NCBI GenBank assembly: GCA_016839365.1
Contig: JAEOUH010000039.1
Coordinates: 4,136 to 28,135, forward strand
DNA length: 24,000 bases
Source of the DNA: Candidatus Hermodarchaeota archaeon
GTDB taxonomy: Archaea; Asgardarchaeota; Hermodarchaeia; Hermodarchaeales; Hermodarchaeaceae
Direction of reading: 5' to 3'
In this document: in pieces, positions 1-23,198 of the stretch
Layout of the letters: each line of letters begins with the position of its first letter
Position numbering within the stretch: position 1 is the stretch's first letter
Translations under genes and position numbers: made by a program
Notes under the pieces: generated by a model
Database searches by the model: none
What the model saw: the letters and a program-made list of their open reading frames with translations, nothing else
What the model was told of the DNA's origin: nothing

Positions 1-986
1 ATGAGGACCGTTTCCTAATGACTGATTGTGACATCATCACAACAACTGAACGTTTCAAGGCGACATTGAAAGCCGCCAAATCTAGTGATATGGCTTTATC
101 GTTATTTGAGGTGCCAAATCCTTGGCAGTTTGGGGTTGTCGCTCTGGAAGGGACTGAAATCACAACTATTGTTGAGAAACCCAAGAAAGGAACTGAGCCA
201 AGTAATCTCGCTGTAGCAGGTGTCTACGTTTTCAACAATGCAATCTTTGACATGCTTCGAAAAACTCAGGATTTAGAAGTGGGGATTCAGAAACTTATCG
301 ACGAAGGGCATACTGTCCATGGAAGCCATTCAAAGGATCCTTGGGTTGACGTTGGACGCACCTGGAATATCCTCGAAGCTTCTCCAATCCTCTTCGACCG
401 ATTGCACCAACAGAAAGGCGATCCCGTCCATCCAACAGCAACCGTTAGTGATTCTGCACATCTCAGTGGGGACGTGTGGATAGGTCCACAAGCCCGCGTG
501 TTTCCAGGGGCAGCCTTAGTGGGACCCGTTTATATCGGTCCCAATGCCATTGTTGGCAATAACTGTCTAATTCGTGATCACGTTGTAATCGATCAAGGAG
601 CAAGAGCCGGCTTTTCCTGTGAAGTTCGAAATACCGTTATGTTACCTGAAAGTAGAATTGGTCACCTCGCCTTTGTTGGTGATAGCATCCTTGGATTTGA
701 TGTGGAGATTGGGGCGAGTGTTGTGTTGGCCAACTACCGATTCGATGGCTCAGAAGTTCAGGTAATGCTAGGCGGGCAATTAGTTTCTACGCATACAGAC
801 AAATTTGGCGCCGTCATCGGGGACGCATCGAAAATCGGATGTGGTGTCGTTGTATTGCCAGGGCGAACTATTGGGTATAACTCATGGATTGACCCCTCGA
901 TTGTTGTCCAAAGGGATGTGCCCGACAATACGCATGTTAAGCTCAAGCAAACCACAACAGAAGATCATCGCCACGCCCCTACCTAA
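1..986 (+). CDS. Sugar-1-phosphate nucleotidylyltransferase / acyltransferase, GlmU- or ST0452-like; 5' end cut by the window edge
   Basis: The frame of the 18..986 ORF stays open back to position 3, so the N-terminal Rossmann and G-x-G-T-R-L part lies outside the window. The visible part has nucleotidyltransferase-core motifs (FGVVAL..G..TTIVEKPKKG..SNLAVAGVYVF, W.DVGRTWNILEA). A long left-handed beta-helix hexapeptide region follows (IGPNAIVGNNCLIRDHVVIDQGARAG...IGDASKIGCGVVVLPGRTIG). Confidence 0.75.
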   Translation, partial: EDRFLMTDCDIITTTERFKATLKAAKSSDMALSLFEVPNPWQFGVVALEGTEITTIVEKPKKGTEPSNLAVAGVYVFNNAIFDMLRKTQDLEVGIQKLIDEGHTVHGSHSKDPWVDVGRTWNILEASPILFDRLHQQKGDPVHPTATVSDSAHLSGDVWIGPQARVFPGAALVGPVYIGPNAIVGNNCLIRDHVVIDQGARAGFSCEVRNTVMLPESRIGHLAFVGDSILGFDVEIGASVVLANYRFDGSEVQVMLGGQLVSTHTDKFGAVIGDASKIGCGVVVLPGRTIGYNSWIDPSIVVQRDVPDNTHVKLKQTTTEDHRHAPT

Positions 987-2382
987 TTTCCCGTTTTAAT
1001 GTCTCTTGGGCATTTTTGAGAAGGCCCTTCGCCCTTTGCGCTGAAAATGCTTCAACTGTAATGCGGATGACCGGCTCTGTACCAGACGGCCTGATGAGCA
1101 CCCAGCTAGAGTCATGGAAACTGGCACGAATACCATCAATTCGATTCACTTCTTCGATGTTCTTCCATTCTTCGAATACTGATTTGATTGCTTTCATCAC
1201 AGCCTCTTTTTTCTCGTTAGGACAAGTCACAGATGCCCTTAGTAGATGGGTTGATGGTAGATCATCTGCGAGTTGACTCAAGGAGCGGTTTGCCCATTCG
1301 AGGAGTTCAAGTATTTTACATGCTGCAAGTGGTCCATCGGGACAATAATGCACCTCTGGAAAGATGAACGGCCCAGAGGGTTCGGCACCCATCACGGCTT
1401 TATGTTCTTTGACTAGATTGGAAACAAAAACGTCGCCAACTCGGGATCGCTCAACCCGTGCACCGTGCTGTTTTACAACCTGATCGACGACACTCGAACT
1501 TGACACGGTAGTGGCAATGACCTTACCTCCCCGGGTAGCAAGATAGTAATCTGCAACTAATGCCAAGAGGATATCCCCTGCTAGAACTCGTCCTTTATCA
1601 TCGACTGCTAACACGCGGTCTGCGTCGCCATCATGGGCAATTCCGACATGCGCTTTGGTTGATGTGACGATTTCACTGAGATTATCAAGGTGTACGAAAT
1701 GTTGCCATTCTGCAGCTGCGGCACTTTGTATCTTTGATGGAGGGCAATGCTGTGCATATTCCTGTCCATCAGGGGGAGTATTAAGAGGTTTGACGCTAGC
1801 GTGTAGTTGCTGAAGCGCTGAGGGGGTGACTAAGCTTCCAACACCGAGTGCGCCGTCCATAACAACATTGTATGATCGGGTCACCTCGCATGCATTCACT
1901 ATAGCATCGAGGTGATGCGGAATGGCTTCAAATGAGCTGAAATCAGTGAACTGTTTCCAATCTACGGGCTCAGCTTTCATAATCCGCTTTTCGAGTTCTT
2001 CCTGTTGGATCGCTGTGAAGCCCGCCCCATCGGGATTGTGGAATTTGAAACCATTGTATTCGGGAGGATTGTGACTTGCAGTCACAATTATCGATGCGTG
2101 CATGCCCTCTTTTCCTGACGCATAGGCAATAGATGGTGTGGGTGCCATCTCGGTTCTTGTGACGGTAACTCCTCCCTCTAGTAGTCCGGCCATTAACGCT
2201 GAAGTCAACATTGGGCCAGTAGTCCGATGATCATGCCCCACCATTATCTGTGGATGCTTCACTATAGCACTTAGATAGTCTGCAGTCGCCAGACCAATTC
2301 GGATAGCCAATGGACCAGTGATTAACTCATTGACTTTTCCCCGGATACCTGAGCTTCCAAACAAGGATCGTGTTGAATACAT
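979..2382 (-). CDS. Phosphohexomutase (alpha-D-phosphohexomutase superfamily; phosphoglucosamine/phosphomanno/phosphoglucomutase), paralog 1
   Basis: It has the canonical catalytic loop TASHNPPEYNGFKF, the metal loop DGDADR and the phosphate loop RPSGTEP. A GGAGA Shine-Dalgarno sits 6 nt upstream of the ATG. There is an 8-nt convergent overlap with the upstream nucleotidyltransferase gene. Confidence 0.85.
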   Translation of the reverse strand: MYSTRSLFGSSGIRGKVNELITGPLAIRIGLATADYLSAIVKHPQIMVGHDHRTTGPMLTSALMAGLLEGGVTVTRTEMAPTPSIAYASGKEGMHASIIVTASHNPPEYNGFKFHNPDGAGFTAIQQEELEKRIMKAEPVDWKQFTDFSSFEAIPHHLDAIVNACEVTRSYNVVMDGALGVGSLVTPSALQQLHASVKPLNTPPDGQEYAQHCPPSKIQSAAAAEWQHFVHLDNLSEIVTSTKAHVGIAHDGDADRVLAVDDKGRVLAGDILLALVADYYLATRGGKVIATTVSSSSVVDQVVKQHGARVERSRVGDVFVSNLVKEHKAVMGAEPSGPFIFPEVHYCPDGPLAACKILELLEWANRSLSQLADDLPSTHLLRASVTCPNEKKEAVMKAIKSVFEEWKNIEEVNRIDGIRASFHDSSWVLIRPSGTEPVIRITVEAFSAQRAKGLLKNAQETLKREIR

Positions 2383-2409
2383 GATAATTCTCCATTTAAT
2401 GTTGCTTTA

Positions 2410-3789
2410 TTATGAAGCAGCAGATTTGAGTACATCTTCAATCCAATCAAGCCCTAGTGTAAGGAGTTCCTGAGCTCGTTTTTCCTGACGCGATTCCGCA
2501 AAGCACCGAAAGACCGGTTCTGTACCGGATGGACGGAGAAGCAACCAGCCATCATCGAAAATGACTTTGACTCCATCTGCGGTATTGACTTGTACATTGG
2601 GATAATCTTTTCTCACCATTTCTAGAGCATACAAGGTAACAGCTTCTTTGAGATTATTAGGGCAATCAATTGCGCGTTTTAATTGGGTGTACTTGGGGAA
2701 TGCATCAATAATCTCACTTAGCGTCTTTTCGGTACGTGCCAAATACTCCAACAAATAAGCGGTACCAAGACCACTATCCGAAAGGTAGTTGAGACGAGGG
2801 TAGATTATTTTACCAGATTCTTCAAAAGCAAACAGTGCGTTGTGCTTTTTGATGGCAGCCACTATCGCTGGTGGTCCAACGCGGCTATACACGATGCGCG
2901 CTTTAAATTGCCCAACGACATCTTCAACTAGGTTACTAGAATTGATTGGTGTGACGATGGTGCCTCCCCCCTCACGGATTAGCTCAATCTGAGCCAGCAG
3001 GGTGCCTGAAACATCACCCATGATTGCCCGTCCTTTATCGTCGACAAAGAACGCACGGTCAGCATCACCATCAACAGCGACACCCAGATCTGCCCTTTGT
3101 TGTTTTACCAACTGAACCGCTTGATCCAAGAGGTTAACTCGTAAATTAGGAGATCGACCAGGAAACGTAGGATCCCGTTCGGTGTTAAGCTCGATAACTG
3201 TACAACCCAGTTGTTTGATGGCATCTAGCAGCCAGGGGATAGCTGTGCCATTTGCAGCATCAACAACTACACGAAAATTTCGTTTGGCAATAAGACCTGC
3301 ATCCACTTGTGTTACGACCTTGTTTATCCAAAAGGAACCTACATCAGAAGCTTGTCGGAGGCGTCCATAATTCTGCCAATTCACAGGTGCGGCTTTTGAA
3401 ATATTGAGCGCTTCGATTTGTTTTTCAACATCACGTGGGACTGGGGCACCATCATGGTCGAGTACTTCAATCCCAGACATATGAGCGGGGATATGGCTGC
3501 CAGTGATTAAGATTGCCCCTCCCAAATCGCAATGGCGGGGATACAAGCTTACAGCTGGTGTGATGACTTCGCCTCCATAATGAGCGTCAGAGCCTCCTGC
3601 CATTAATCCACTAACGACAGCGTTTGTCAGCATTGGGCTGCTTGTACGGTTATCGTGGCATACTAAAAGAGGTGCACCCTTGAAAACCGTGGCGACACTA
3701 TAGCCGATTTGCCAAGCAACCTCTGGATGCAGTTCATCGGGGACAGAGCCACGAATACCACTAGTGCCAAAGCAGGGCGTCCATGTCAT
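2410..3789 (-). CDS. Phosphohexomutase-family protein, paralog 2, with a divergent catalytic loop
   Basis: The gene is full length and collinear with the other two paralogs (FGTSGIRG, DGDADR, EESG, RPSGTEP). The phosphoserine loop reads ITGSHIPAHMSGIEV instead of T-A/G-S-H-N-P-P-E-Y-N-G. A GAGGT SD lies upstream of the ATG. It is 27 nt upstream of paralog 1 on the same strand, so the two are probably an operon. Confidence 0.8.
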   Translation of the reverse strand: MTWTPCFGTSGIRGSVPDELHPEVAWQIGYSVATVFKGAPLLVCHDNRTSSPMLTNAVVSGLMAGGSDAHYGGEVITPAVSLYPRHCDLGGAILITGSHIPAHMSGIEVLDHDGAPVPRDVEKQIEALNISKAAPVNWQNYGRLRQASDVGSFWINKVVTQVDAGLIAKRNFRVVVDAANGTAIPWLLDAIKQLGCTVIELNTERDPTFPGRSPNLRVNLLDQAVQLVKQQRADLGVAVDGDADRAFFVDDKGRAIMGDVSGTLLAQIELIREGGGTIVTPINSSNLVEDVVGQFKARIVYSRVGPPAIVAAIKKHNALFAFEESGKIIYPRLNYLSDSGLGTAYLLEYLARTEKTLSEIIDAFPKYTQLKRAIDCPNNLKEAVTLYALEMVRKDYPNVQVNTADGVKVIFDDGWLLLRPSGTEPVFRCFAESRQEKRAQELLTLGLDWIEDVLKSAAS

Positions 3790-3836
3790 TATGAAACCTC
3801 ATTCAAGAGCTGCGTCTTACATCATATCGCTATGCT

Positions 3837-3854
3837 TAAAAAGCCCTTTTTATA
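3837..3854. promoter_or_regulatory. Putative bidirectional archaeal TATA element (palindromic) between divergent genes
   Basis: TAAAAAG (3837-3843) and CTTTTTA (3846-3852) form a perfect 7-bp inverted repeat, so a TTTTTA(TA) box appears on both strands. It lies about 50 nt from the minus-strand ATG (3789) and about 70 nt from the plus-strand ATG (3922). Confidence 0.35.
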
Positions 3855-3921
3855 GCGTGGTTTTTTCTACAATGCACAAAGCAAAGAAGTTAAATTCGCA
3901 GACTACTCTAAGCTTGTTAGG

Positions 3922-4632
3922 ATGCGGGTCGTTAAGTCTGCAGATTCCCTCGGGAATCCTCAATCAATGGATGAAGACCATCTTGCTGCGGTCATCCGTG
4001 AGTTCGGACGCTCAATGCGTGAGGTCACCGGAGGTCTGGATGATGCTATGAATCGGTGGGAATCAGCCCACCGCGGTTCACTTCGACCCATTCGAGTCAT
4101 CCTTGGCTCATTATCTAAAATTAATTACCTTCGTAATATTGAGGATCTTGGAAAACTTACTTCTTTTGAGGGTATCGTCGATAGAGCTATCACAAAGAAC
4201 ATGGGACTCCTCGATAAAGTGCTCCCCAAGTTGTTAGCCCTAGCGTCCGATTTTGAAAGTTCGATCAGAAAAATGCGGCTAATGGAAAAACGAGTCTCCG
4301 AATTGCAACGTCGTGGAGGCAATCTACTTAGTTCTGAGGGAAGCAACGAACCACGGATTTATCAATTGGTTGAAAACGTCGACGCCCTTAGCCGGAAGCT
4401 TCGTGAAATAGTGTGCATGTACGAGGATGAATACCTATTTCGATTGAAAACAATCCGGAATATCGAAGAGCTGTTGGATCCAAAGGAGCTCTATACCGGA
4501 CTGCTCTTATGGACCATGGAGCCATACCTGGAGGCGGATCGTATCGAAGTGATCCGTAAAGAAATCGGAACTCACATTGAAGAGACTCGATCACTTGTGT
4601 CCCGCCAAAACATTTCCCCGAATATGTTTTAG
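3922..4632 (+). CDS. Hypothetical all-helical protein; possible distant CINP/C1orf109-like fold (speculative)
   Basis: The 236-aa ORF has protein-like composition and heptad-rich helices. Its C-terminal motif is LLLWTMEPYLEADRIEVIRKEI. An alternative start is the Met at 3967. No catalytic motifs were recognised. Confidence 0.5.
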   Translation: MRVVKSADSLGNPQSMDEDHLAAVIREFGRSMREVTGGLDDAMNRWESAHRGSLRPIRVILGSLSKINYLRNIEDLGKLTSFEGIVDRAITKNMGLLDKVLPKLLALASDFESSIRKMRLMEKRVSELQRRGGNLLSSEGSNEPRIYQLVENVDALSRKLREIVCMYEDEYLFRLKTIRNIEELLDPKELYTGLLLWTMEPYLEADRIEVIRKEIGTHIEETRSLVSRQNISPNMF

Positions 4633-4710
4633 TTGGATATCGCGGGACTGAACTAGCCCACAGATTAATACCTTCGCAGGTAGGTTTGATGATTACAAGA
4701 GGAGACTCCG

Positions 4711-6090
4711 TTGACCCGATTGTTTGGGACGCAAGGGTTCCGAGGCATTGTCAATAGAGAACTCACGGCATCAGTGGCATATGATGTGGGCCGTGCATTA
4801 GCTGATTATCTTGAAGGACCGAAGACCATTGGTCTAGGATGGGATTCCCGCCAATCCAGTGAAATGCTTGGATTTGCCTTTAGTGCGGGCTTGATGACTG
4901 GAGGTTGTAACGTTCATATTCTGGGTCTGGTTCCCACGCCTCTGTTATCTTATGCTATTCCTCAACTCAAATTGGATGGGGGAGTAATGATTACAGCAAG
5001 TCATAACCCACCGGAATACAATGGCATTAAATTGTGGGGTCCAGATGGCGCATCTTTTACAATGGAAATGGGACGGGCAGTTGAGGACTGTTATTTTGTT
5101 GAAGACAGACCTTTACCTGAATGGCAGGCTTGTGGGCGTCTCGTTCCCTCTGAGGATTTCAGGTTGCAGTATATCGAAGCCCTGCTCGAGCAGGTTAATG
5201 GACAACGTCTCATGAAACGACAGTTCCAAGTTGCTGCTGATTGTGGTGGAGGCGCCGCGGCTATGGTTGTTCCGGCCCTGTTGAATGCAATAGAGGTACG
5301 GACCAAGCTTCTTTACTGCGAACCTGATGGTCTCTTTTCTAACCGGTTACCAGAACCTAAAGAGGCTAATCTCCAAAAATTAATTCAGACCGTTAAAAAG
5401 AATGAACTCGATGTAGGGATGGCCTGGGATGGTGACGCCGATCGAATTATCCTAATCACAAATCAAGGGCGATACCTTATGGGTGATCGTGTCTTCGCAC
5501 TCGCAGCATATCATTCGCTTCGAGACCTCCAAGAGAAGCCAAAGCGTATCGTTACACAAGTGGCGACCAGCGATGTCATCCACGAAGTTGCGCTCCTTGT
5601 TGATGCAGAGATAATCGAAACGCGGGTCGGTGAACCCTTCATAGTCCAGGCAATGAAATCTAAGAATGCGGTGATTGGTGGTGAAGAAAATGGGGGAGTT
5701 ATCTACCGCGGATGGTCTTGGACCCGAGAAGGGATGCTTACGGCATTGAAGATTCTTGAACTCATGGAATTAGAAGACAAATCTCTAGAAGAGCTAGATA
5801 GCCAATTTTCCACCTATCATCAGGTTAAAGAGAGTGTTCACTGCGACCTTCAAGAGAAGGATACACTCCTTGAGCTCATTAAAGAATATGCTCCCTCTGA
5901 GGTTGAGTGCAGCACCATCGATGGAATCAAAGTTCGATACTCTGATGGGTGGGTTCTTCTCCGCCCCTCTGGAACCGAACCCATCTTTCGCGTCTTTGCA
6001 GAGGCAAAAACTGAAACCCGAGCAAAAACATTAGTCAATCAAGGGCTCCAAATCGTATCTGATGCTCTTGGAGATATGAAAACAAATTAA
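4711..6090 (+). CDS. Phosphohexomutase (PGM/PMM/GlmM family), paralog 3
   Basis: It has ITASHNPPEYNGIKL, DGDADR, GGEENGG and RPSGTEP. The start is TTG at 4711, preceded by GGAG at 4701-4704 with a 6-nt spacer. Confidence 0.85.
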   Translation: MTRLFGTQGFRGIVNRELTASVAYDVGRALADYLEGPKTIGLGWDSRQSSEMLGFAFSAGLMTGGCNVHILGLVPTPLLSYAIPQLKLDGGVMITASHNPPEYNGIKLWGPDGASFTMEMGRAVEDCYFVEDRPLPEWQACGRLVPSEDFRLQYIEALLEQVNGQRLMKRQFQVAADCGGGAAAMVVPALLNAIEVRTKLLYCEPDGLFSNRLPEPKEANLQKLIQTVKKNELDVGMAWDGDADRIILITNQGRYLMGDRVFALAAYHSLRDLQEKPKRIVTQVATSDVIHEVALLVDAEIIETRVGEPFIVQAMKSKNAVIGGEENGGVIYRGWSWTREGMLTALKILELMELEDKSLEELDSQFSTYHQVKESVHCDLQEKDTLLELIKEYAPSEVECSTIDGIKVRYSDGWVLLRPSGTEPIFRVFAEAKTETRAKTLVNQGLQIVSDALGDMKTN

Positions 6091-6107: not shown

Positions 6108-6530
6108 TTGCGTTTGTTGATTTTTCATGGGAATATAGCCTACAAGCCTACTGAAGCAGTAAGGATCAGTATTCGTGATGAAGCCAAGGAGGATACCTGG
6201 CAAGAATTCGAAAACTGCTTAACTGTTTTTTGTGCCGTAGAAGCTTCTGATGAAGGGCGGTTATCCGAAATTGTGCAAAAGGCGACAGAAGAAATTCAGT
6301 TGGTGGCTAACAGAGTCAAGGTTGGGAACATTGTGTTATATCCACATGCACACATCTTTCCCCGGAAACTCGCCAAACCCAAGTTCGCTGTTAGGATATT
6401 GCAGAATTTACTGAAGGCCTTAGAAGATCAAGGCTTCGTGGTGCACCAAAGCCCATTCGGTTGGTACAAAGCCTTTAAGCTCGAATGCTATGGCCACCCC
6501 CTAGCTGAAAGCGGAAGAAGTATAGATTAG
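6108..6530 (+). CDS. Free-standing archaeal ThrRS-type editing domain (tRNA-Thr-ED / DTD-like fold) protein
   Basis: The 140-aa protein is collinear with the N-terminal editing domain of archaeal ThrRS as I recall it (MRLL..H.....E; VLYPHAHI versus V/LYPFAHLS; PFGWYKAFKLECYGHPLAES versus [22 protein letters not shown]). The start is TTG, with a GGTGA SD 6 nt upstream. It begins 17 nt after mutase paralog 3. Confidence 0.7.
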   Translation: MRLLIFHGNIAYKPTEAVRISIRDEAKEDTWQEFENCLTVFCAVEASDEGRLSEIVQKATEEIQLVANRVKVGNIVLYPHAHIFPRKLAKPKFAVRILQNLLKALEDQGFVVHQSPFGWYKAFKLECYGHPLAESGRSID

Positions 6531-11043: not shown

Positions 11044-12252
11044 GTGAATTTGGAGGACCATTGCTTGCGTAGGTTCACTAACACCTTGATTCTCGGGCTT
11101 ATTCTTATTGTATTGGCTAGCCCTTTGACTGCCTTGGCGGCGCCTTCTCGACAGGATGTTATCATTCCCTTCTCCGTGACTTGTTTAGATAGCTCTGGTG
11201 GTGCAGTCTTGCGACCAGGTGAGTCACTTCCCCAAATATCTCATACCTTTGCCATAGCCAACGTCTTTGACACCCTTGATGCCTGGATTGCGGCGGACCT
11301 CCTCACCCCAGATCGGGGTTTAATTGAAAACATGACAACTTGGGTCACTGGACTTTTCGTCGATGAAATCGCTTCGGATCCAAGCTATGGGGGATTCCGA
11401 CCCTATAATGGATTTCCGAACGCAACGCTCTCAGCAAGTGCCTTTGCAGCCCAAACCCTCGATCTCCTCAATCAAACAGATAGTATTGATTCCTCTATTC
11501 TCATTGATTTCACTATAAACCTACAGCACACCAATGCCACTTTGTATCCTGACACGATTGGTGGGTTCATGGATTGGGCTAACACCTCTGCTACAGTGTC
11601 TGCAACCTATTCTGCAATCCAAATCCTTAACGTGTACGACGCGATTTCACAAATGAACACCTCTTTAGCAATTGACTGGTTGAATTCCAGCCAACTCTTA
11701 ACAGATTCACTCTCTCCCAGCTATGGAGGGTTTGCTAACGGGCGAAACTCTACAACAGCAGACTTGCAGACAACTTATATGGCCTTGCGTAGCCTCGAAA
11801 TACTCGGAGCCCTATCAATAATCGATGAAGAAGCCGCGATTGATTACATTCTTCCCCATTATCGCGACGATGCAAATTATCCTCAACACCAAGGAGGCTT
11901 CAGTTATACGCCAGACAACCCCGTCGCTACCCATCTGGCAACTTTTTATGCAGTAGCTAGTTTACAAATCCTTGGCGCAGAGAGCCAGCTAGTTACAGAG
12001 GATATCACCGCATGGATACTCAGCAAACAGACTCTTGACGGCGGCTTTAATGATATCAGCGGAATCAATGGAACTGCCCCACAAACAAATTTCGCAGTTT
12101 CCACTCTAGCCTTACTTGACCAACTTGCCCTGCTTCATTTACCAGTGGGACCTGATCTCTTCGTCTTTCCATGGTGGATTGTCGCTGTTGTCGTAATTAT
12201 CGTTTTGATCGTATTGTGCATTATTATCGCTCGACGGGCTGAAATATTCTAG
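11044..12252 (+). CDS. Secreted, C-terminally membrane-anchored protein with prenyltransferase-beta/terpenoid-cyclase-type (alpha-alpha toroid) repeats
   Basis: The N-terminal signal peptide is RRFTNTLILGLILIVLASPLTALA|AP. There are five spaced GGF repeats (SYGGFRPY, TIGGFMDW, SYGGFANG, HQGGFSYT, LDGGFND), each followed by the T/Y..A...L..L pattern of PFTB-type repeats. I count nine N-x-S/T sequons. The C-terminal TM anchor is WWIVAVVVIIVLIVLCIIIARR. Confidence 0.6.
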   Translation: MNLEDHCLRRFTNTLILGLILIVLASPLTALAAPSRQDVIIPFSVTCLDSSGGAVLRPGESLPQISHTFAIANVFDTLDAWIAADLLTPDRGLIENMTTWVTGLFVDEIASDPSYGGFRPYNGFPNATLSASAFAAQTLDLLNQTDSIDSSILIDFTINLQHTNATLYPDTIGGFMDWANTSATVSATYSAIQILNVYDAISQMNTSLAIDWLNSSQLLTDSLSPSYGGFANGRNSTTADLQTTYMALRSLEILGALSIIDEEAAIDYILPHYRDDANYPQHQGGFSYTPDNPVATHLATFYAVASLQILGAESQLVTEDITAWILSKQTLDGGFNDISGINGTAPQTNFAVSTLALLDQLALLHLPVGPDLFVFPWWIVAVVVIIVLIVLCIIIARRAEIF

Positions 12253-13729: not shown

Positions 13730-13895
13730 GCCAGCTAGTGGCATGATGTTTACCTTAAATTGGCATATCCGTTAGGATTAATGACCACTAAATATTAGAG
13801 GTAAACTCTGCATTCCCAGAAAACAATTATTAACACATAGAAGTATGTAGTTCTGTCCGTTGGGGTTGGTGACCTGCGTGCCTAGAGAATTAGTG

Positions 13896-14723
13896 ATGCT
13901 CCGCATTGTTGACACCGGTGAAACAGTTCAAATCACCGATGCAGCTCCAGCGAAGACCCACTTGAAAGACGATGAAGTCCTCATTGTCATCGACGATGAG
14001 GAACGGCTAATTTGGATATGGAAAGGTAATGATGCCCCTGTCCGAAGAAAGTTCATTGCAGCCCGTCGTGCATCTGGCATCCGAGACCAGCGAGGTCTTG
14101 TTTATAAGATTCTATCTGAGGACCAAGGTCAAGAGGGAGCGAAATTCCTGGAGTGTATGGGATTACCACTCTCAACCAAGCCTGATGAGGCCATGAAAGC
14201 ACCACCTTCCGCCCCACCCATGCCGAGGCAAGCCACGGAGCCGGTAGCTGAACCACCAAAACCAACTCCAATCCAAGGAACGAAACCTGCGGACTATCGA
14301 GAAGCTGTGGTGACAGCGACTAGAACACCAGACCGTCAGACAGTACAGGTTCCGCATGTGCCATCTGAAATTATTGAACAGGTTGAAAAACTTGAACCAG
14401 TTCCAGGTTTTCGCCGAGAATTCGTGTTGATTGGGTTCGATGCCTTTGGCATCACCGAAGAAATTACCAGTGTCTTAGGTAAAACAACGAAAACACGAAA
14501 ATTACAGCGTATTGATTCGTTACCTGAAGGTACTGTCTTCGCCCAAGGATATACCCCACGGGTAGTGATTAAGGATGGACAAGTCTTGGCTATCGAATTC
14601 CTCAAACATCTAGAGGAAGAAGAATACGTGCACGAAAAAGAAGCTGTTAAGGAAGAGATGGCACGACAGATTACTGAACTAATTGAAGCATCTCGAAGTG
14701 AAAAGAGCCGTCAAAAATCATAG
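13896..14723 (+). CDS. Gelsolin/villin-repeat domain protein with a Pro-rich linker and an unknown C-terminal domain ('1DGelX'-like architecture)
   Basis: The N-terminal ~90 aa follow the gelsolin-repeat pattern: L.DDEVLIVIDDEERLIWIWKGNDAPVRRKFIAARRASGIRDQRG...ILSEDQGQEGAKFLECMGL (compare sDvFiLD.g..iyvWvGk.as..Ek.kA...A..i........v.eg.E...F...lG). A Pro-rich segment follows (APPSAPPMPRQATEPVAEPPKPTP), then an unassigned ~90-aa domain and a charged helix. The start is uncertain (ATG 13896 or TTG 13860). Confidence 0.6.
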   Translation: MLRIVDTGETVQITDAAPAKTHLKDDEVLIVIDDEERLIWIWKGNDAPVRRKFIAARRASGIRDQRGLVYKILSEDQGQEGAKFLECMGLPLSTKPDEAMKAPPSAPPMPRQATEPVAEPPKPTPIQGTKPADYREAVVTATRTPDRQTVQVPHVPSEIIEQVEKLEPVPGFRREFVLIGFDAFGITEEITSVLGKTTKTRKLQRIDSLPEGTVFAQGYTPRVVIKDGQVLAIEFLKHLEEEEYVHEKEAVKEEMARQITELIEASRSEKSRQKS

Positions 14724-14740
14724 GATTACGAGGGGATAAA

Positions 14741-15136
14741 ATGCAACAGTTTGCGATGAGCGAAGAAGAAGCCAAACAACTAGCAATGTATCTGCGCGAA
14801 ATCACGTTGTATACAGAACTTGAAACACTGGCAGTGGTCACAAAAGCGGGTCGACGGGTAGCATTCAGCTCAACGAAGGGTGTTAACATTGATCCAGATT
14901 TATTATCAGCGATTTCTGCGGTCTTGCTACAGACAGGTATCGAAGCGGTGGAGAAACTAGCTTTCGAACCATTGTTTGAACTCATCGTTCGCGGGGAAAA
15001 GGGTATTATTGTGGTCACAGACGCTGGACCTTTAGTGCTCATTGGGGCAGGAGTCAAGATTGAATCATTGGGACATGTCGTATCTGTGTTCCGACACTTT
15101 GGGCGCGAAATCGCCTCGTTATTTTCCAAAAAGTGA
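14741..15136 (+). CDS. Roadblock/LC7 (MglB-like) domain protein
   Basis: The 131-aa protein shows the Roadblock pattern: ...LETLAVVTKAGRRVAFSS.....DPDLLSAISAVLLQTGIEAVEKL.....ELIVRGEKGIIVVTDAGP.LVLIG. It begins 17 nt downstream of the gelsolin-domain gene on the same strand. Confidence 0.7.
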   Translation: MQQFAMSEEEAKQLAMYLREITLYTELETLAVVTKAGRRVAFSSTKGVNIDPDLLSAISAVLLQTGIEAVEKLAFEPLFELIVRGEKGIIVVTDAGPLVLIGAGVKIESLGHVVSVFRHFGREIASLFSKK

Positions 15137-17482: not shown

Positions 17483-18631
17483 TTAGAAGATGGTAATAAA
17501 CCGGGTTGCAGGCTCACTGCGAAGTCGTACAGCAACATGGTCATTATTAAGCTGGAGAAAATGCCGTTCATGTTCTGTTAGCTTTTGATCAAGGGGGGAA
17601 AGGACTGCATCGAGGCCATTTGTGAGAATGAAGTTACCAACCTGATTGACCATTGGATTTGATTGATTGACCTTCGTTTCAAAAAAGACCAAGGGACTCT
17701 GTAAAGCCGCATAACGAGTACAGAGCCAATAAGCCAGCTTGGGGGAGAGCTCAGGTGGATTAACTAGGAAGAGGGGAGGAAGAGAATTTTCCTCGCGTGA
17801 AATAAGCTTCATGAGCAGTAGGTTCATTGCAAAAACGCTAGTTGGTGTATCAGTAACCGAGATTATTGTTGGAAGATGCGTGATATGAGACAAGGCGACA
17901 TTGTCATAATTTGGTTTGAGTAGGTCATGGGGGAGGGCATCAATTAAGCGGCGTATTTCAAAATAAGAAGCACCATGATGGTGATAAAATGATAGAGTAT
18001 TTTGGAGGTACTCAATTGACGGTTGAGCAGCCGACAGAAGTATTTTCCAGATAATTACGTGAAGAAGATTCCGAGCTGTAGGAGAGAGAGGATAGAACTC
18101 TTCAAAGAGTCTTATAAGGATGCTAATCTGCTGCGAGGGATGCAGTCCACCGCCTAAGTTCAAGGCGTTGAAGGTGATTTCATCCTTTTCTAAGTCTAGA
18201 TGCCACAGGGGACCTTCACAGACTTGTTGTTCGAGACCCTCTGAGGGCGCCCCTTTGATGACAATGACTGGGATGCGGTGATCGTCATGAAGTTGTATGA
18301 GCAGATTGAAGTAGATGTCTTGAGCCCTGGGACCGACAACGAAGAGGTTGATGAGGTCTTGAAGTGTCAATGAAAAGGGGTGAGTTTGATGGTTCTGTAT
18401 TAGGTATCCGATTTGAATCAACCCGGTCGTGTGGTGCGATTCGAAGTTAAAATGCGAACTTTCATCCGACAAGCCGTTTCCCCACATTCCATGCGGGTTC
18501 CGCCTCTTTTTTAGGTATTCGTGATAGTCTGTTTTAATAGACAGACATACTGCAGAGAGGTCACTGAAAGTAATCGCTGACCTTACTCCACTATGCCGTT
18601 TCCTATTTAAGCGATAAGCGGTAATGCTCAT
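17483..18631 (-). CDS. Hypothetical protein; possible HerA/DUF87-like P-loop NTPase fold with eroded Walker motifs
   Basis: The 382-aa ORF has a layout resembling HerA/DUF87 ATPases (IGYLI....HPFSLTLQDLINLFVVG-PRAQDIY-FNLLIQL...RIPVIVI). At the expected Walker A position, GPRAQDIY replaces GxxGxGK[ST]. At the expected Walker B position, PLFLVNPPE replaces hhhhDE. This is inference from pattern only. Confidence 0.45.
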   Translation of the reverse strand: MSITAYRLNRKRHSGVRSAITFSDLSAVCLSIKTDYHEYLKKRRNPHGMWGNGLSDESSHFNFESHHTTGLIQIGYLIQNHQTHPFSLTLQDLINLFVVGPRAQDIYFNLLIQLHDDHRIPVIVIKGAPSEGLEQQVCEGPLWHLDLEKDEITFNALNLGGGLHPSQQISILIRLFEEFYPLSPTARNLLHVIIWKILLSAAQPSIEYLQNTLSFYHHHGASYFEIRRLIDALPHDLLKPNYDNVALSHITHLPTIISVTDTPTSVFAMNLLLMKLISREENSLPPLFLVNPPELSPKLAYWLCTRYAALQSPLVFFETKVNQSNPMVNQVGNFILTNGLDAVLSPLDQKLTEHERHFLQLNNDHVAVRLRSEPATRFITIF

Positions 18632-20377: not shown

Positions 20378-21889
20378 ATGTGGTTTCCAAGAAACGGAAG
20401 GCTCATGTCCCAGCCAGCGGTGGATCCAAAAAACAGTGGTTTCTGTCCCTCCTGCCATATCAATATGGCAGAACGTTACTGCAAAGAATGTGGACAAGTC
20501 TTTTGTCTCCCTTGTTCACGTCAGGATAACAGCGAATTCTACACCTGTGCCCGCTGCGGACCGGACACCATCGAAGAACGGGAAGAGGGTGAATGGGTTT
20601 GCACCGAATGTGATGGACCCGCTCAGTTGGCGACCCGCCGAGTCCATCTTTGCCCAAATTGTGGCTCCGAGGGAATCGTCCCAATTCACAATATGCGACA
20701 AGAACTGGTTGGCCGCTATCGGACGACTTACTACAGGCTTAGAACAGGTCATGAACTGCTATCAGGATTTGCTGCCCGGTTGCGGATTTTACGATGGCGA
20801 ATCCGAGAATTACGAACAGCGAGTTTTCTGCATGACCCAGATGTGGAAAAGGAACTCCTTGATCTGATTAAATCTGACTTGTCTAGCGTCCAAGAACGTA
20901 TTCTCTTTCGTGCACGGAGTGTAGTCGAACGGCATCGAGCAAGCAAGATTCGCTTTTTGCACCCAGAACGTTGGACCATCACAGACTTTCCCTTGCTGGC
21001 TGGTCTAATCGAAGCGATCCAAGAAGACGTGGCAGACTACCAGGCCTATTGTCGTGATCTTGTCGGTGAGCTAGACGTAAAACTTGCTACCATCGAGGCC
21101 CGGCTAACCAAGATTGCCGAATGGCACAAACTCTTCGATGACCACATCGAATATCTTCCACTTATTGAGAATGAACGACCCGTTGCTGCTATTCATCCTG
21201 TGAGCCTGAACAAAACCGACACGAATGAAAGGATGGGTAACGGAATCTTATTCATCACCAGCAAGCGTTTGATCTTTCTGGGGCGGAAAGGGTTCTTTAC
21301 CAAAGAAACTAGGGTCATCCGTTCATTAGCCCTTGCGGAAATCACCGATGTTGAGCTTGAAGGACGGATTCGCAAACGGCTACGAGTCGCAATTGAAAAT
21401 GATGAGTTGAAACTTGGTGGCCCCTCAAGAGTATTGGAAGACATCCCGGATGCCATTAATTTAGCAACAAGCTTCTCGGAGCACAGCCTGGTCACTACCT
21501 CGGGTTCTCTGCGTATTCTAAATTTAAAGGTCGATGTGACTTCTCTGCGGGATGAATTGGATCAACTCATTAATTACGCAATTTCTCCTGAGGACGGAGA
21601 CCTATCTCGCCAACCTGAGGGGTCTCGCCCTTATCCATATCCCGATGGGTATTATCCTCGGTTTTCTTCACGATCTGATGGGTTAGAGCGAGATCCTGTC
21701 TTCCAGCTAGAGCAACAGCGGTTTAGCATCGAATCCACTATGGAGTTGCTCAAGAAGCAGTTCGAGGAAGGAAAGCTGTCTGATGAGAAATTCTTCAAAC
21801 AGTACCGTTCCCTAACTCAAGAACTGTATCTTGTGGAAGCCCGGATACGAGACACACAATCTCGTAAGGGTTTCGAAGACAAACGATAA
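20378..21889 (+). CDS. Multi-zinc-ribbon protein with a helical middle region, a PH/GRAM-like (bPH-type) domain and a SHOCT-like C-terminal helix pair
   Basis: Six CxxC pairs are present (C23/26, C35/38, C43/46, C57/60, C75/78, C92/95; nt 20444-20662). The PH/GRAM-like signature is NGILFITSKRLIFLGRKGFF..ETRVIRSLALAEITDVELEG....RLRVAIENDELKL (about nt 21170-21472). A Pro/Tyr-rich stretch (SRPYPYPDGYYPRF) follows. The C-terminus is a SHOCT-like MELLKKQFEEGKLSDEKFFKQYRSL (about nt 21719-21835). An alternative start is ATG 20405. Confidence 0.6.
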   Translation: MWFPRNGRLMSQPAVDPKNSGFCPSCHINMAERYCKECGQVFCLPCSRQDNSEFYTCARCGPDTIEEREEGEWVCTECDGPAQLATRRVHLCPNCGSEGIVPIHNMRQELVGRYRTTYYRLRTGHELLSGFAARLRILRWRIRELRTASFLHDPDVEKELLDLIKSDLSSVQERILFRARSVVERHRASKIRFLHPERWTITDFPLLAGLIEAIQEDVADYQAYCRDLVGELDVKLATIEARLTKIAEWHKLFDDHIEYLPLIENERPVAAIHPVSLNKTDTNERMGNGILFITSKRLIFLGRKGFFTKETRVIRSLALAEITDVELEGRIRKRLRVAIENDELKLGGPSRVLEDIPDAINLATSFSEHSLVTTSGSLRILNLKVDVTSLRDELDQLINYAISPEDGDLSRQPEGSRPYPYPDGYYPRFSSRSDGLERDPVFQLEQQRFSIESTMELLKKQFEEGKLSDEKFFKQYRSLTQELYLVEARIRDTQSRKGFEDKR

Positions 21890-21919
21890 ATCAAGCTAAC
21901 ATTTGAAGGCGTACGTAAG

Positions 21920-22552
21920 TTATTCTTTAACTTCCTTTTTCAGGCGTTCAAGTTCTCGCTTTGTTCGCTCGCGTCGTTCCTCTGAGGTTTCGAGGAGCTC
22001 TTCTTCGCCTTCAGGCACAGAAGGTAGTTGACCTGCTTCTTCGAGGGCGATCATGGTTTCGATGTCCTCAAGTTCGGCATCAACCTCAGCGTCCATTTCT
22101 TCGTCCTCAAGGCCGAGTCCCAGGATTTCTTCGGTGGCTTCAGCTTCCTCAATGAGGGCTTGTGTTTCAAGAATAACTTCACGTGCGACCTCTGGTGAAG
22201 CTGTCTCTCGTAGGTTCTCCAGTTCAGCACCGATGCCTTTGAGGGCACTGATAACTTCAGTTTCTCCACGAGCTTGATCGATGGCTTCAACGCCACGTTC
22301 CATCAAATCGATTTCTTGCTCAATCAGACGGGCTTTGCGCAGATAGCGTTGACGTCTACGAAGCTGTAACTTCGCCGCCTTTCGATCACCCCGACGAACA
22401 TAACGGATAGCTTTAATCCTCGAGTCCTTGGCCTTCGTTTCATATTGACGACCACGGACTTCAAGTTTGTCTGTTACCCGATGAATCCGGGCAATCGTGT
22501 CTTCTTTAGGTTCAGGTTTTTTCGGAAAGAGTTTTTCCCAGAATTTAGCCAT
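21920..22552 (-). CDS. ESCRT-III family protein, Snf7/CHMP4-Vps20-like class
   Basis: The N-terminus is hydrophobic and amphipathic (MAKFWEKLFPKK). The basic helical hairpin is ...RGDRKAAKLQLRRRQRYLRKARLIEQEI..., followed by ALKGIGAELENL and a very acidic tail. A proline motif QLPSVPEGEE resembles the MIM2 class. It lies 4 nt downstream of the other ESCRT-III gene. Confidence 0.8.
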   Translation of the reverse strand: MAKFWEKLFPKKPEPKEDTIARIHRVTDKLEVRGRQYETKAKDSRIKAIRYVRRGDRKAAKLQLRRRQRYLRKARLIEQEIDLMERGVEAIDQARGETEVISALKGIGAELENLRETASPEVAREVILETQALIEEAEATEEILGLGLEDEEMDAEVDAELEDIETMIALEEAGQLPSVPEGEEELLETSEERRERTKRELERLKKEVKE

Positions 22553-22556
22553 TTGT

Positions 22557-23198
22557 CTAGCCCTCCTCCTTTAATCGTTCAATTTCTTTTTCTAATTCAG
22601 AGACGCGCTTTTCGGGTTCGGGGAGTGAGGTACCTGTTTCTACTTCGATTTCTGAATCGAGCTCCCGAAGTGCGTCTTTCACTTCGCCATCAGTGACCTC
22701 GGTGGAAACGGCCATCCGGTCCATTCCCGCTTCGGCGACTTCTTGGGTCATTTCGAAGTGACGAAGGTTGCCTTCGATCTGATCAACAAGTTGTGCAACC
22801 TCAGGAACCTTAACCTGGTTCTTCAGTCCGCCAAGGGCAGAGTTGAGCTGGCCTAGGATTTTAGCCACTTCACCCATGGCTTCACTTTGGCGTAGTTGGG
22901 TTTGTAATCCTTCAATACGGAGACGATAGGCATCTACGCTCAGAGCCCATTTTTGGAATCGCAGATGATGTTGAAGGTACATCCGCGTGGCATCCATATT
23001 ACCCGATAACCGGTACTTTTTGGCCCGTTCACGGCTTTTACTCGCTTCTTTTTCGAGCATCTTCCGTTGTAAATCGAGCTTCCGGCAGAAGACATCAAGA
23101 CGGAAGATGAGCTTCTTCAGATCGGGTCCACCGCCCAGCCAATTCATAAATCGGCGAATAGCAGACATTGTCATTAACCTACCACTGACACCCTTCAA
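22557..23198 (-). CDS. ESCRT-III family protein, CHMP1/2/3 (Vps2/24/46)-like class
   Basis: SGNMDATRMYLQHHLRFQKW parallels GQMDAVRIMAKDLVRTRR of CHMP2 as recalled. Further matches are AMGEVAKILGQLNSALGGLKNQVKVPEVAQLVDQIE and an acidic linker. The C-terminal helix SELEKEIERLKEEG is MIM1-like. The likely true start is ATG 23168 (MSAIRRFMNWLGG) rather than TTG 23198. Confidence 0.8.
   Translation of the reverse strand: MKGVSGRLMTMSAIRRFMNWLGGGPDLKKLIFRLDVFCRKLDLQRKMLEKEASKSRERAKKYRLSGNMDATRMYLQHHLRFQKWALSVDAYRLRIEGLQTQLRQSEAMGEVAKILGQLNSALGGLKNQVKVPEVAQLVDQIEGNLRHFEMTQEVAEAGMDRMAVSTEVTDGEVKDALRELDSEIEVETGTSLPEPEKRVSELEKEIERLKEEG

Follow-up and report, generated by a model that had tools for sequence, protein, structure and literature searches.

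The product of the gene at positions 20405..21889 (+) of the 24,000-nucleotide stretch of Candidatus Hermodarchaeota archaeon DNA analysed here (the window) is probably the orthologue, in Hermodarchaeota, of Znr_CC_PH_SB, an Asgard-specific protein that would act as an ESCRT-I-like adaptor by the mechanism proposed below; we give this reading a probability of about 0.6. Makarova et al. (2024, mBio 15:e00335-24, PMC10936438) published the architecture as Znr_CC_PH_SB (also Znr_PH_CC_SB), asCOG cog.011556, and predicted that it is a component of ESCRT-I associated with the membrane. The window protein has the module order given there for the family, i.e. three Zn sites, a coiled coil, a PH domain, a linker and a steadiness box, and shares with it an Asgard-only distribution and a gene listed in ESCRT neighbourhoods (Makarova et al., 2024, PMC10936438). 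An analogy with the GLUE domain of Vps36 has also been drawn for such a protein in the literature. As the family was named in 2024, the novelty implied by a preliminary description of this DNA falls, and the finding is a rediscovery of a family already described.

The open reading frame reported in that description, 20378..21889 (+), 503 aa, is present in the window, but the true start is most likely M10 at nucleotide 20405, giving a CDS of 494 aa. This start is preferred because MSQPA stands at the N-terminus of a near-identical NCBI protein (P0001) and of every homologue. An A/T-rich, possibly TATA-like element lies ~27–35 nt 5′ of the M10 ATG. The AlphaFold2 model of the 503-aa protein has a mean pLDDT of 81.

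An ESCRT assignment comes from the C-terminus, where a helical hairpin at residues 440–496 (21695..21865, +) closes the protein in the AlphaFold2 model. By profile comparison, this hairpin is a Vps23-core steadiness box, the ESCRT-I assembly module. The best PDB matches of the family profile are to the yeast Vps23/Stp22 ESCRT-I core (2p22_A, E 3.3e-5; 2caz_A, 8.8e-5; 2f66_A, 1.8e-4), Pfam Vps23_core is matched in 16/16 family members (best E 5.3e-6), and two homologues carry a precomputed PF09454 match. The window protein by itself scores 19.8 bits for Vps23_core, under the curated threshold of 26.8, and the Thor-clade profile by itself reaches Vps23 at an E of only 0.92. Of the other proteins examined that match only the steadiness-box part of the profile, several also give weak Vps23_core or CdvA matches. 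The preliminary description had read the helix pair as SHOCT-like; SHOCT found no match at E ≤ 1 in the window protein and none among the 16 members. It had also held that the ESCRT link depended on gene proximity alone. Since the hairpin corresponds to an ESCRT-I steadiness box, the link rests on homology too, alongside an adjacency that is conserved across the phylum.

Residues ~265–370 (21170..21487, +) form a PH domain of the GRAM/GLUE/bacterial-PH type, with seven strands and a helix at 268–369 arranged in PH topology in the AlphaFold2 model. Pfam bPH_3 matches the window protein at E 1.7e-4, accompanied by weak Vps36 GLUE and GRAM matches; the score of 22.4 bits is just under the curated threshold of 23, and the Vps36_ESCRT-II match (E 0.021) is also below threshold. 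Across the family, 12 of the 16 members match bPH_3, the best of them at E 9.4e-6. When the isolated PH model was searched with Foldseek, PH, GRAM and GLUE domains were matched with a probability of 1.00, and the first match was the yeast Vps36 GLUE/PH domain (2cay_B, E 2.4e-5), followed by the MTMR2 GRAM-PH, bacterial PH and Lam6 GRAM domains; the lead of GLUE is small, with GRAM and bacterial PH within one order of magnitude. The human EAP45 GLUE domain (2hth_B) aligned with a TMq of 0.66. A profile of the PH segment alone gave no significant match among PDB sequences, GLUE included. The PH domain (pI 9.3) is the sole basic module of the protein, in the Hermod and Thor clades alike, and has conserved basic residues at R297, K304, R312, R330 and R332. 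The GRAM/bacterial-PH segment proposed from sequence in the preliminary description, and the beta fold on which its idea depended, are thus borne out by the model and by Foldseek on the isolated domain.

The N-terminal zinc module (residues 20–102; 20435..20683, +) carries six CxxC pairs at residues 23/26, 35/38, 43/46, 57/60, 75/78 and 92/95, with three predicted Zn sites. All six pairs are kept in 16 Hermod-clade homologues, and the Thor clade, with an identity of ~25%, has them as well, in line with the multi-zinc N-terminus described earlier. The module is acidic, and beta-hairpins are modelled at residues 32–102. Pairs 1–4 follow the spacing CxxC-x8-CxxC-x4-CxxC-x10-CxxC, which resembles B-box, FYVE and RING modules, while pairs 5–6 make up a classical ribbon; in distant members the third ribbon does not keep its W-x-C-x2-C start. 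Pfam returns weak DZR, B-box, FYVE and TFIIB-ribbon matches for this region. Ubiquitin-binding fingers of the NZF/RanBP2 type were sought with Pfam, and PF00641 did not match the window protein. A FYVE-type PI3P binder was likewise rejected: the matches are weak only, and the (R/K)(R/K)HHCR motif, which we take to be the FYVE signature, is judged absent because the sequence there reads ERYCKECG.

Between the zinc module and the PH domain, residues 103–259 (20684..21154, +) form three long helices (103–147, 154–194 and 203–259; pLDDT mostly >85), a long helical hairpin or coiled-coil stalk where a helical region had been proposed. The Pro/Tyr-rich stretch PYPYPDGYYP, also pointed out previously, lies in a linker at residues 406–436 (21593..21685, +) that is disordered in the AlphaFold2 model and holds a conserved RPYPYxDGYY motif.

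Homology to the described family was measured on the Loki clade and its member P0044, standing in for the type protein, Lokiarchaeum GC14_75 As_004-p_01543, which was sought by name and is not among the 120 matches listed. The profile alignment to the Loki clade (hhalign) has a probability of 99.9% and an E of 1.8e-32, and the family profile matches P0044 at E 3.2e-53. The P0044 locus is the same, gene for gene, as the GC14_75 cog.011556 locus in the published account. The Hermod/Thor form is compact (~495–525 aa), whereas the Loki form reaches 640–750 aa, its added length being a ~200-aa N/P/Y-rich linker. A related Heimdall asCOG, cog.006820, is described as ‘triple Zn ribbon fused to PH’. 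Neither the window protein nor the Thor and Loki proteins match an NCBIfam family; many members are named ‘B-box zinc finger protein’ by NCBI, and some homologues ‘RNA-binding Zn-ribbon protein involved in translation, DUF1610’ by JGI.

The gene faces an ESCRT-III operon tail to tail. Its stop codon is separated by exactly 30 nt (21890..21919), as previously noted, from the stop of a convergent Snf7 gene (21920..22552, −; 210 aa) whose product, earlier called CHMP4-like, is Vps20/32/60 (ESCRT-IIIB, CHMP4–7)-like. Upstream of that gene in the same operon lies a second ESCRT-III gene (22557..23198, −; 213 aa), Vps2/24/46 (CHMP1/2)-like. By eye, the 30-nt gap shows no obvious oligo-T or hairpin terminator. 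Conservation of the pairing, a check proposed in the preliminary description, was found across the phylum: a convergent Snf7 gene lies directly downstream in 25/26 informative Hermod/Thor loci, and directly downstream or one gene off in nine of the ten distant members (Loki, Jord, Asgardarchaeia and one Odin-labelled MAG). In total, 34/36 informative loci, down to ~25% identity, keep the Snf7 neighbour amid complete turnover of the remaining flanking genes; the exceptions are member P0037 and Hermod locus L015. From stop to stop, the convergent genes usually lie −4 to 100 nt apart, and one locus reads Znr-PH-SB → ← Snf7 ← Snf7 Vps4 → Vps25 →. The adjacent paralogue is Vps20-like in Hermod and CHMP1/2-like in Thor, and the neighbouring ESCRT-III proteins are 206–213 aa long, with Snf7 as their only Pfam match. 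Linkage to ESCRT-III, and not to Vps28 or Vps22, is unexpected for a classical ESCRT-I subunit and counts against the ESCRT-I reading.

Among known ESCRT proteins, Vps23/TSG101 of ESCRT-I shares with the window protein a homologous C-terminal steadiness-box hairpin, a helical stalk, a Pro-rich linker and an N-terminal recognition module. It differs in that the window protein has a triple-Zn module and a PH domain in place of a UEV (Pfam found no UEV or UBC match in it), that the PH domain sits between stalk and steadiness box, and that the linker precedes the steadiness box and not the stalk. Vps36/EAP45 of ESCRT-II is similar in that it too is an ESCRT protein in which zinc fingers occur together with a GRAM-like PH fold. 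However, the zinc fingers here are N-terminal, not inserted in the PH domain and not of the NZF/RanBP2 type; there is no Pfam match to EAP30 or an ESCRT-II core and no winged helix in the AlphaFold2 model; and the window protein bears the hallmark of ESCRT-I, the steadiness box, not that of ESCRT-II. The proposal of an ESCRT-linked partner that recognises membranes or cargo, much as the GLUE domain of Vps36 does, fits the evidence, 2cay_B being the top Foldseek match, but ESCRT-I, with a Vps23-like scaffold, is the better comparison. The accompanying statement that archaeal Vps22/36-like proteins have no GLUE module agrees with what is reported for Asgard archaea (Hatano, 2022).

In the mechanism we propose, the basic GRAM/GLUE-type PH domain would bring the protein to the membrane or to a ligand close to it, while the steadiness-box hairpin would pack against its counterparts in Vps28 and other steadiness-box proteins to build an ESCRT-I-type headpiece, with the long helical hairpin as the stalk. 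Binding of cargo or further partners may fall to the acidic triple-Zn module and the P/Y-rich linker, and the assembly could then hand over to ESCRT-II/Vps25 and the neighbouring ESCRT-III proteins. Counting against the first step, no PI3P equivalent is known among archaeal lipids as a ligand for the PH domain. We infer this membrane binding, steadiness-box assembly and order of recruitment, and also that the protein may be the main Vps23-like subunit in lineages reported to be without UEV-Vps23, i.e. Thor- and Lokiarchaeia. A yeast two-hybrid interaction between a free-standing steadiness-box protein, other than Znr_CC_PH_SB, and Vps28 has been described in Loki and Thor (Hatano, 2022). The literature search found no experimental study of any Znr_CC_PH_SB member.

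A different route to ESCRT-III is offered by CdvA, the cell division adaptor of Thermoproteota. On that model the PH domain would sit on the membrane and the protein would recruit or nucleate the adjacent ESCRT-III directly, bypassing ESCRT-I and ESCRT-II, as CdvA does with CdvB. The conserved genomic partner is indeed an ESCRT-III gene, and CdvA too is a membrane-binding adaptor encoded beside ESCRT-III (membrane binding being predicted for the window protein), with a shared layout of membrane-binding domain, coiled coil and C-terminal hairpin. The CdvA hairpin is reported to be related to steadiness boxes, and one steadiness-box protein that matches the family profile also matches Pfam CdvA. 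Yet CdvA has a PRC-barrel and neither PH domain nor Zn module, and its recruitment of CdvB depends on an E3B peptide and a winged helix. The neighbouring ESCRT-III proteins here have the length and the Snf7-only Pfam match given above, so that Pfam shows no CdvB-type winged-helix extension on them, nor is an E3B-like peptide evident. The change of adjacent paralogue class between Hermod and Thor speaks against a single fixed binary partner, and Vps25 is also present where the full locus is kept. We consider direct recruitment somewhat unlikely. Much less probable in our view is that the N-terminal Zn module, cross-braced on this view, is an E3-like or oligomerisation module that regulates or modifies ESCRT, the PH domain and steadiness box serving for targeting only. 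The family profile does match the RINGs of RNF4 (E 4.3e-4), COP1 (3.7e-3) and TRIM proteins, Pfam zf-B_box reaches 3.5e-4 in Thor, the CxxC spacing resembles B-box1 and FYVE, and the NCBI label points the same way. These matches are weak, however, and span just ~28–48 residues; models of a double zinc ribbon (DZR) and of the TFIIB ribbon do just as well, the ligands are all Cys with no His of the RING/B-box type, and ubiquitin has so far not been identified in Thorarchaeota (Hatano, 2022).

That the protein is an unrelated Zn-ribbon/bacterial-PH protein lying fortuitously beside ESCRT-III is strongly disfavoured. The JGI name, the sub-threshold single-sequence Pfam matches and the two loci without a Snf7 neighbour would suit such a coincidence, but it is opposed by the persistence of the linkage despite turnover of the other flanking genes, by Vps23_core homology in every member and by best PDB matches to the ESCRT-I core. 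At the other extreme, the ESCRT-I-like adaptor reading may be extended: Znr-CC-PH-SB would be the ancestral membrane-targeting Asgard ESCRT-I subunit, standing in for UEV-Vps23 in Thor and Loki; its Zn-finger and GLUE-like PH domains would be the source of the eukaryotic Vps36 GLUE; and the near-zero convergent gap, found phylum-wide, would force 3′ transcript overlap, coupling or balancing the expression of adaptor and filament. Taken as a whole, we regard this extension as speculative and improbable.

Among prokaryotes, the ESCRT proteins of Asgard archaea are most closely related to the machinery that remodels eukaryotic membranes, and this family is the obvious candidate for membrane or cargo targeting where ESCRT-0, the Vps36 GLUE domain and sometimes ubiquitin or UEV are missing. 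Such a targeting role has already been put forward in the literature on computational grounds. What is added here is that the C-terminus is assigned to a steadiness box and not to SHOCT, that the Vps36 GLUE domain is the nearest solved structure to the isolated PH domain, and that the tail-to-tail pairing with ESCRT-III, with its count across loci, accompanies the published family. Together these results supply a clear, testable set of partners for biochemistry.

The Znr-PH-SB gene (window positions 20378–21889, + strand; 503 codons in the ORF listing) meets an ESCRT-III gene tail to tail (21920–22552, − strand; 210 aa; Pfam Snf7, E = 1.1e-17), and the gap between the two stop codons is exactly 30 nt (21890–21919), as the preliminary description had it. 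Next to this neighbour lies a second ESCRT-III gene (22557–23198, − strand; 213 aa; Snf7, E = 5.4e-17). Comparison with solved structures makes the 213-aa protein CHMP1B/CHMP2A-like and the 210-aa protein Vps20/32/60-like, with matches to 9fn1_U (E = 1.4e-12) and the Heimdall ESCRT-IIIB structure 9ftl, so the latter had rightly been called CHMP4-like. The true start of Znr-PH-SB is probably M10 (nt 20405), because the near-identical NCBI protein P0001 and all homologues begin MSQPA. An A/T-rich element ~27–35 nt 5′ of the M10 ATG may be a promoter; no oligo-T terminator was seen in the window's 30-nt gap.

Steadiness boxes are the modules from which the headpiece of ESCRT-I is built. In the window protein alone, Pfam Vps23_core matches residues 450–490 below threshold (E = 8.1e-4), while family-wide it is matched by all 16 members (best E = 5.3e-6), and the AlphaFold2 model (full protein; mean pLDDT 81.1, pTM 0.62) has a helical hairpin at 440–496. 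When the family profile was compared with all PDB sequences, the three best matches were to the yeast Vps23/Stp22 ESCRT-I core (2p22_A, E = 3.3e-5; 2caz_A, 8.8e-5; 2f66_A, 1.8e-4), aligned to the last ~60 residues, and by this sequence comparison the C-terminal helix pair is therefore identified as a steadiness box. The preliminary description had called it SHOCT-like, missing this ESCRT-I hallmark; Pfam gave no SHOCT match in the window protein, and it is Vps23_core that matches there.

The central segment had been likened to GRAM and bacterial PH domains, and modelling bears this out: three long helices (103–259) precede seven strands (268–347) and a helix (350–369), which is PH topology. 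Sub-threshold Pfam matches in the window protein alone are to bPH_3 (residues 281–356, E = 1.7e-4), Vps36_ESCRT-II (GLUE; 261–304, E = 0.021) and GRAM (E = 0.16), with bPH_3 matched by 12 of 16 family members (best E = 9.4e-6). Foldseek with the full model against the PDB found PH domains at probability 1.00, the compact single-domain matches being bacterial PH (3dcx and 3hsa), MTMR2 GRAM-PH, Lam6 GRAM and human EAP45 GLUE (2hth_B). Residues 255–375 modelled alone (pLDDT 83, pTM 0.77) gave the yeast Vps36 N-terminal PH/GLUE domain as best match (2cay_B, E = 2.4e-5), followed by small margins by MTMR2 GRAM-PH (1.9e-4), then bacterial PH and Lam6; human GLUE had a TMq of 0.66, a value shared with MTMR2 (1zsq) and exceeded by no other match listed. 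The sequence profile of the segment had no significant match in the PDB. It is safely described as a PH domain of the GRAM/GLUE/bPH subgroup, with no specific homology to Vps36 claimed. It is also the sole basic module (pI 9.3; net charge +2 in the window protein, +4.8 in Thor).

The zinc module is acidic. Its six CxxC pairs, noted previously and starting at residues 23, 35, 43, 57, 75 and 92, are kept in 16 homologues as well as in a second, ~25% identical clade; the model places beta-hairpins at 32–102, and the window protein alone has weak Pfam matches to Zn-ribbon, FYVE and B-box. Pairs 1–4 (20435–20560, aa 20–61) are spaced x8/x4/x10 and weakly match RING (RNF4, COP1, TRIM), B-box, FYVE and double-zinc-ribbon models alike. 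Residues 406–436 are disordered in the model and contain the Pro/Tyr-rich stretch, where a motif R-P-Y-P-Y-(P)-D/E-G-Y-Y-P (21626–21658, aa 417–427) is kept in the Hermod main clade; some Thor members, for example at L021 and L022, have it as RRYPYDGYYRKPE. The linker around it is disordered and shows no further conservation, and the motif itself is a candidate short linear motif for binding. In Loki homologues this position is occupied by an N/P/Y-rich linker of ~200 aa.

Near homologues (52–91% identity) belong to MAGs that carry a Hermodarchaeota or Promethearchaeota label, and the second tier (~25%) is Thorarchaeota; Hermod and Thor profiles are collinear across 477 columns including the steadiness box (hhalign probability 100%, E = 1.5e-41). 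When 1.84 billion representative proteins were searched exhaustively with HMMER, only 151 clusters came up at E ≤ 1e-3, the named ones being Loki-, Jord-, Odin- and Asgardarchaeia. The Loki-clade profile aligns with that of Hermod over the zinc, coiled-coil, PH and post-PH helices (probability 99.9%, E = 1.8e-32), and its C-terminal hairpin consensus, ERYSLxETLKxLDxKFDQGxISExDYFRTFKNLQKEIYLI, is plainly like the window's QQRFSIESTMELLKKQFEEGKLSDEKFFKQYRSLTQELYLV. The locus of the Loki member P0044 reads PepD, L35Ae, ..., Znr gene, MetE, Snf7(−), DHQS. This is the order published for Lokiarchaeum GC14_75, where a supplement lists cog.011556, 'Znr_CC_PH_SB', on the + strand, then MetE, then a convergent Vps20 gene (Makarova et al., 2024; PMC10936438). 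Through this profile and locus order, the evidence that the window protein belongs to asCOG cog.011556 is indirect but strong. The same mBio paper calls Znr_CC_PH_SB 'a likely ESCRT-I component' and, drawing a parallel to the GLUE domain of Vps36, expects its PH domain to associate with membranes (Makarova et al., 2024). Four things were thus already in print in 2024: the family, how it is built, its occurrence in Asgard ESCRT neighbourhoods and the analogy with Vps36 GLUE. Where that paper discusses its Fig. 6A, Hermodarchaeia are said to 'have none', a remark that may apply in a narrower sense, yet the genome of Ca. Hermodarchaeum yapensis Yap4.bin9.105 (L008, 6001–8824) carries the gene with two Snf7 genes. 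A Vps36 homologue is reported to be absent from Asgard archaea, and Thorarchaeota ubiquitin genes were not yet identified (Hatano et al., 2022; PMC9192718). Our literature search found no experimental work on the protein.

What the present analysis adds is the linkage counts. Across 27 species-representative genome loci surveyed by tblastn with the window's proteins (26 informative; L027 ends too early to judge), a convergent Snf7 gene lies directly downstream in 25 of the 26 Hermod and Thor loci, the sole exception being a Hermod-clade locus (L015, 6544–7683) where an unrelated 379-aa ORF replaces it. The entire neighbourhood is common to the Hermod loci (Roadblock, HD, AspRS, orf69, orf382(−), UbiA, metallophosphoesterase, Znr-PH-SB and two Snf7(−) genes); Thor loci have other upstream genes (TldD/PmbA and others) and still keep the convergent Snf7. 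This neighbour is CHMP1/2-like in Thor (L018, 7543–8163) and Vps20/32/60-like in Hermod; the constant partner is some ESCRT-III gene and no one fixed paralogue. The Thor gene is followed by one for a 1087-aa protein without a Pfam match. Among ten distant members, six adjoin a convergent Snf7 directly (L032, L033, L035, L036, L037 and L038; L036 is counted on a weak precomputed match only) and three have one gene between (L029, L031 and L034); L028 has no Snf7 within 6 kb. The order at L033, Znr-PH-SB→ ←Snf7 ←Snf7 Vps4→ Vps25→, is a complete core ESCRT locus. Conserved convergent gene pairs are unusual, and adjacency by chance is effectively excluded. Since stop-to-stop gaps are so short (Hermod 5–47 nt, Thor 0–3 nt, directly adjacent distant cases −4 to 99 nt), the transcripts would be expected to overlap at their 3′ ends in most lineages.

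Other genes in the window also drew attention. A 382-aa ORF (17483–18631, − strand) without a Pfam match keeps its position in all Hermod-clade loci at 33–85% identity. The gene at 14741–15136 encodes Roadblock/LC7, which in Asgard archaea counts as a eukaryotic-signature family; a 287-aa ORF without a Pfam match (13860–14723) precedes it. At L028, two genes upstream of the distant Znr-PH-SB member, there is a Roadblock-Arf/Ras fusion. Three phosphoglucomutase/phosphomannomutase paralogues occur within 5 kb (979–6090); between the second and third, a 236-aa ORF (3922–4632) weakly matches C1orf109-like, a eukaryotic ribosome-biogenesis family (E = 2.4e-4, below cutoff). The window also encodes a free-standing ThrRS editing domain of archaeal type (6108–6530; 140 aa) and, at 11044–12252, a protein of 402 aa that contains a prenyltransferase alpha-alpha toroid domain.

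The domain identities, family membership and linkage established here are best read as those of an ESCRT-I-like adaptor, from which we infer binding and assembly. The PH domain would bind membrane, the steadiness box hairpin would combine with Vps28 or other steadiness box proteins in a headpiece of the ESCRT-I type, the helical hairpin would form the stalk, the zinc module and Pro/Tyr-rich linker would bind cargo or partners, and the assembly would hand over to ESCRT-II/III. The chief alternative, direct recruitment of ESCRT-III in the manner of CdvA, is favoured by the genomic pairing exclusively with ESCRT-III and by a reported relationship between the steadiness box and CdvA; however, the adjacent paralogue changes between lineages, and of the CdvB-type winged helix and E3B feature neither was detected. 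The RNF4/COP1/TRIM and B-box matches point faintly to the zinc module as a RING/B-box-type regulator.

The earlier idea of an ESCRT-linked membrane or cargo partner was largely right in its functional intuition, its C-terminal assignment being the part that fell. Two features remain of interest, the very close convergent pairing with ESCRT-III throughout the phylum and the GLUE-like PH domain; neither alters this picture without experiments.
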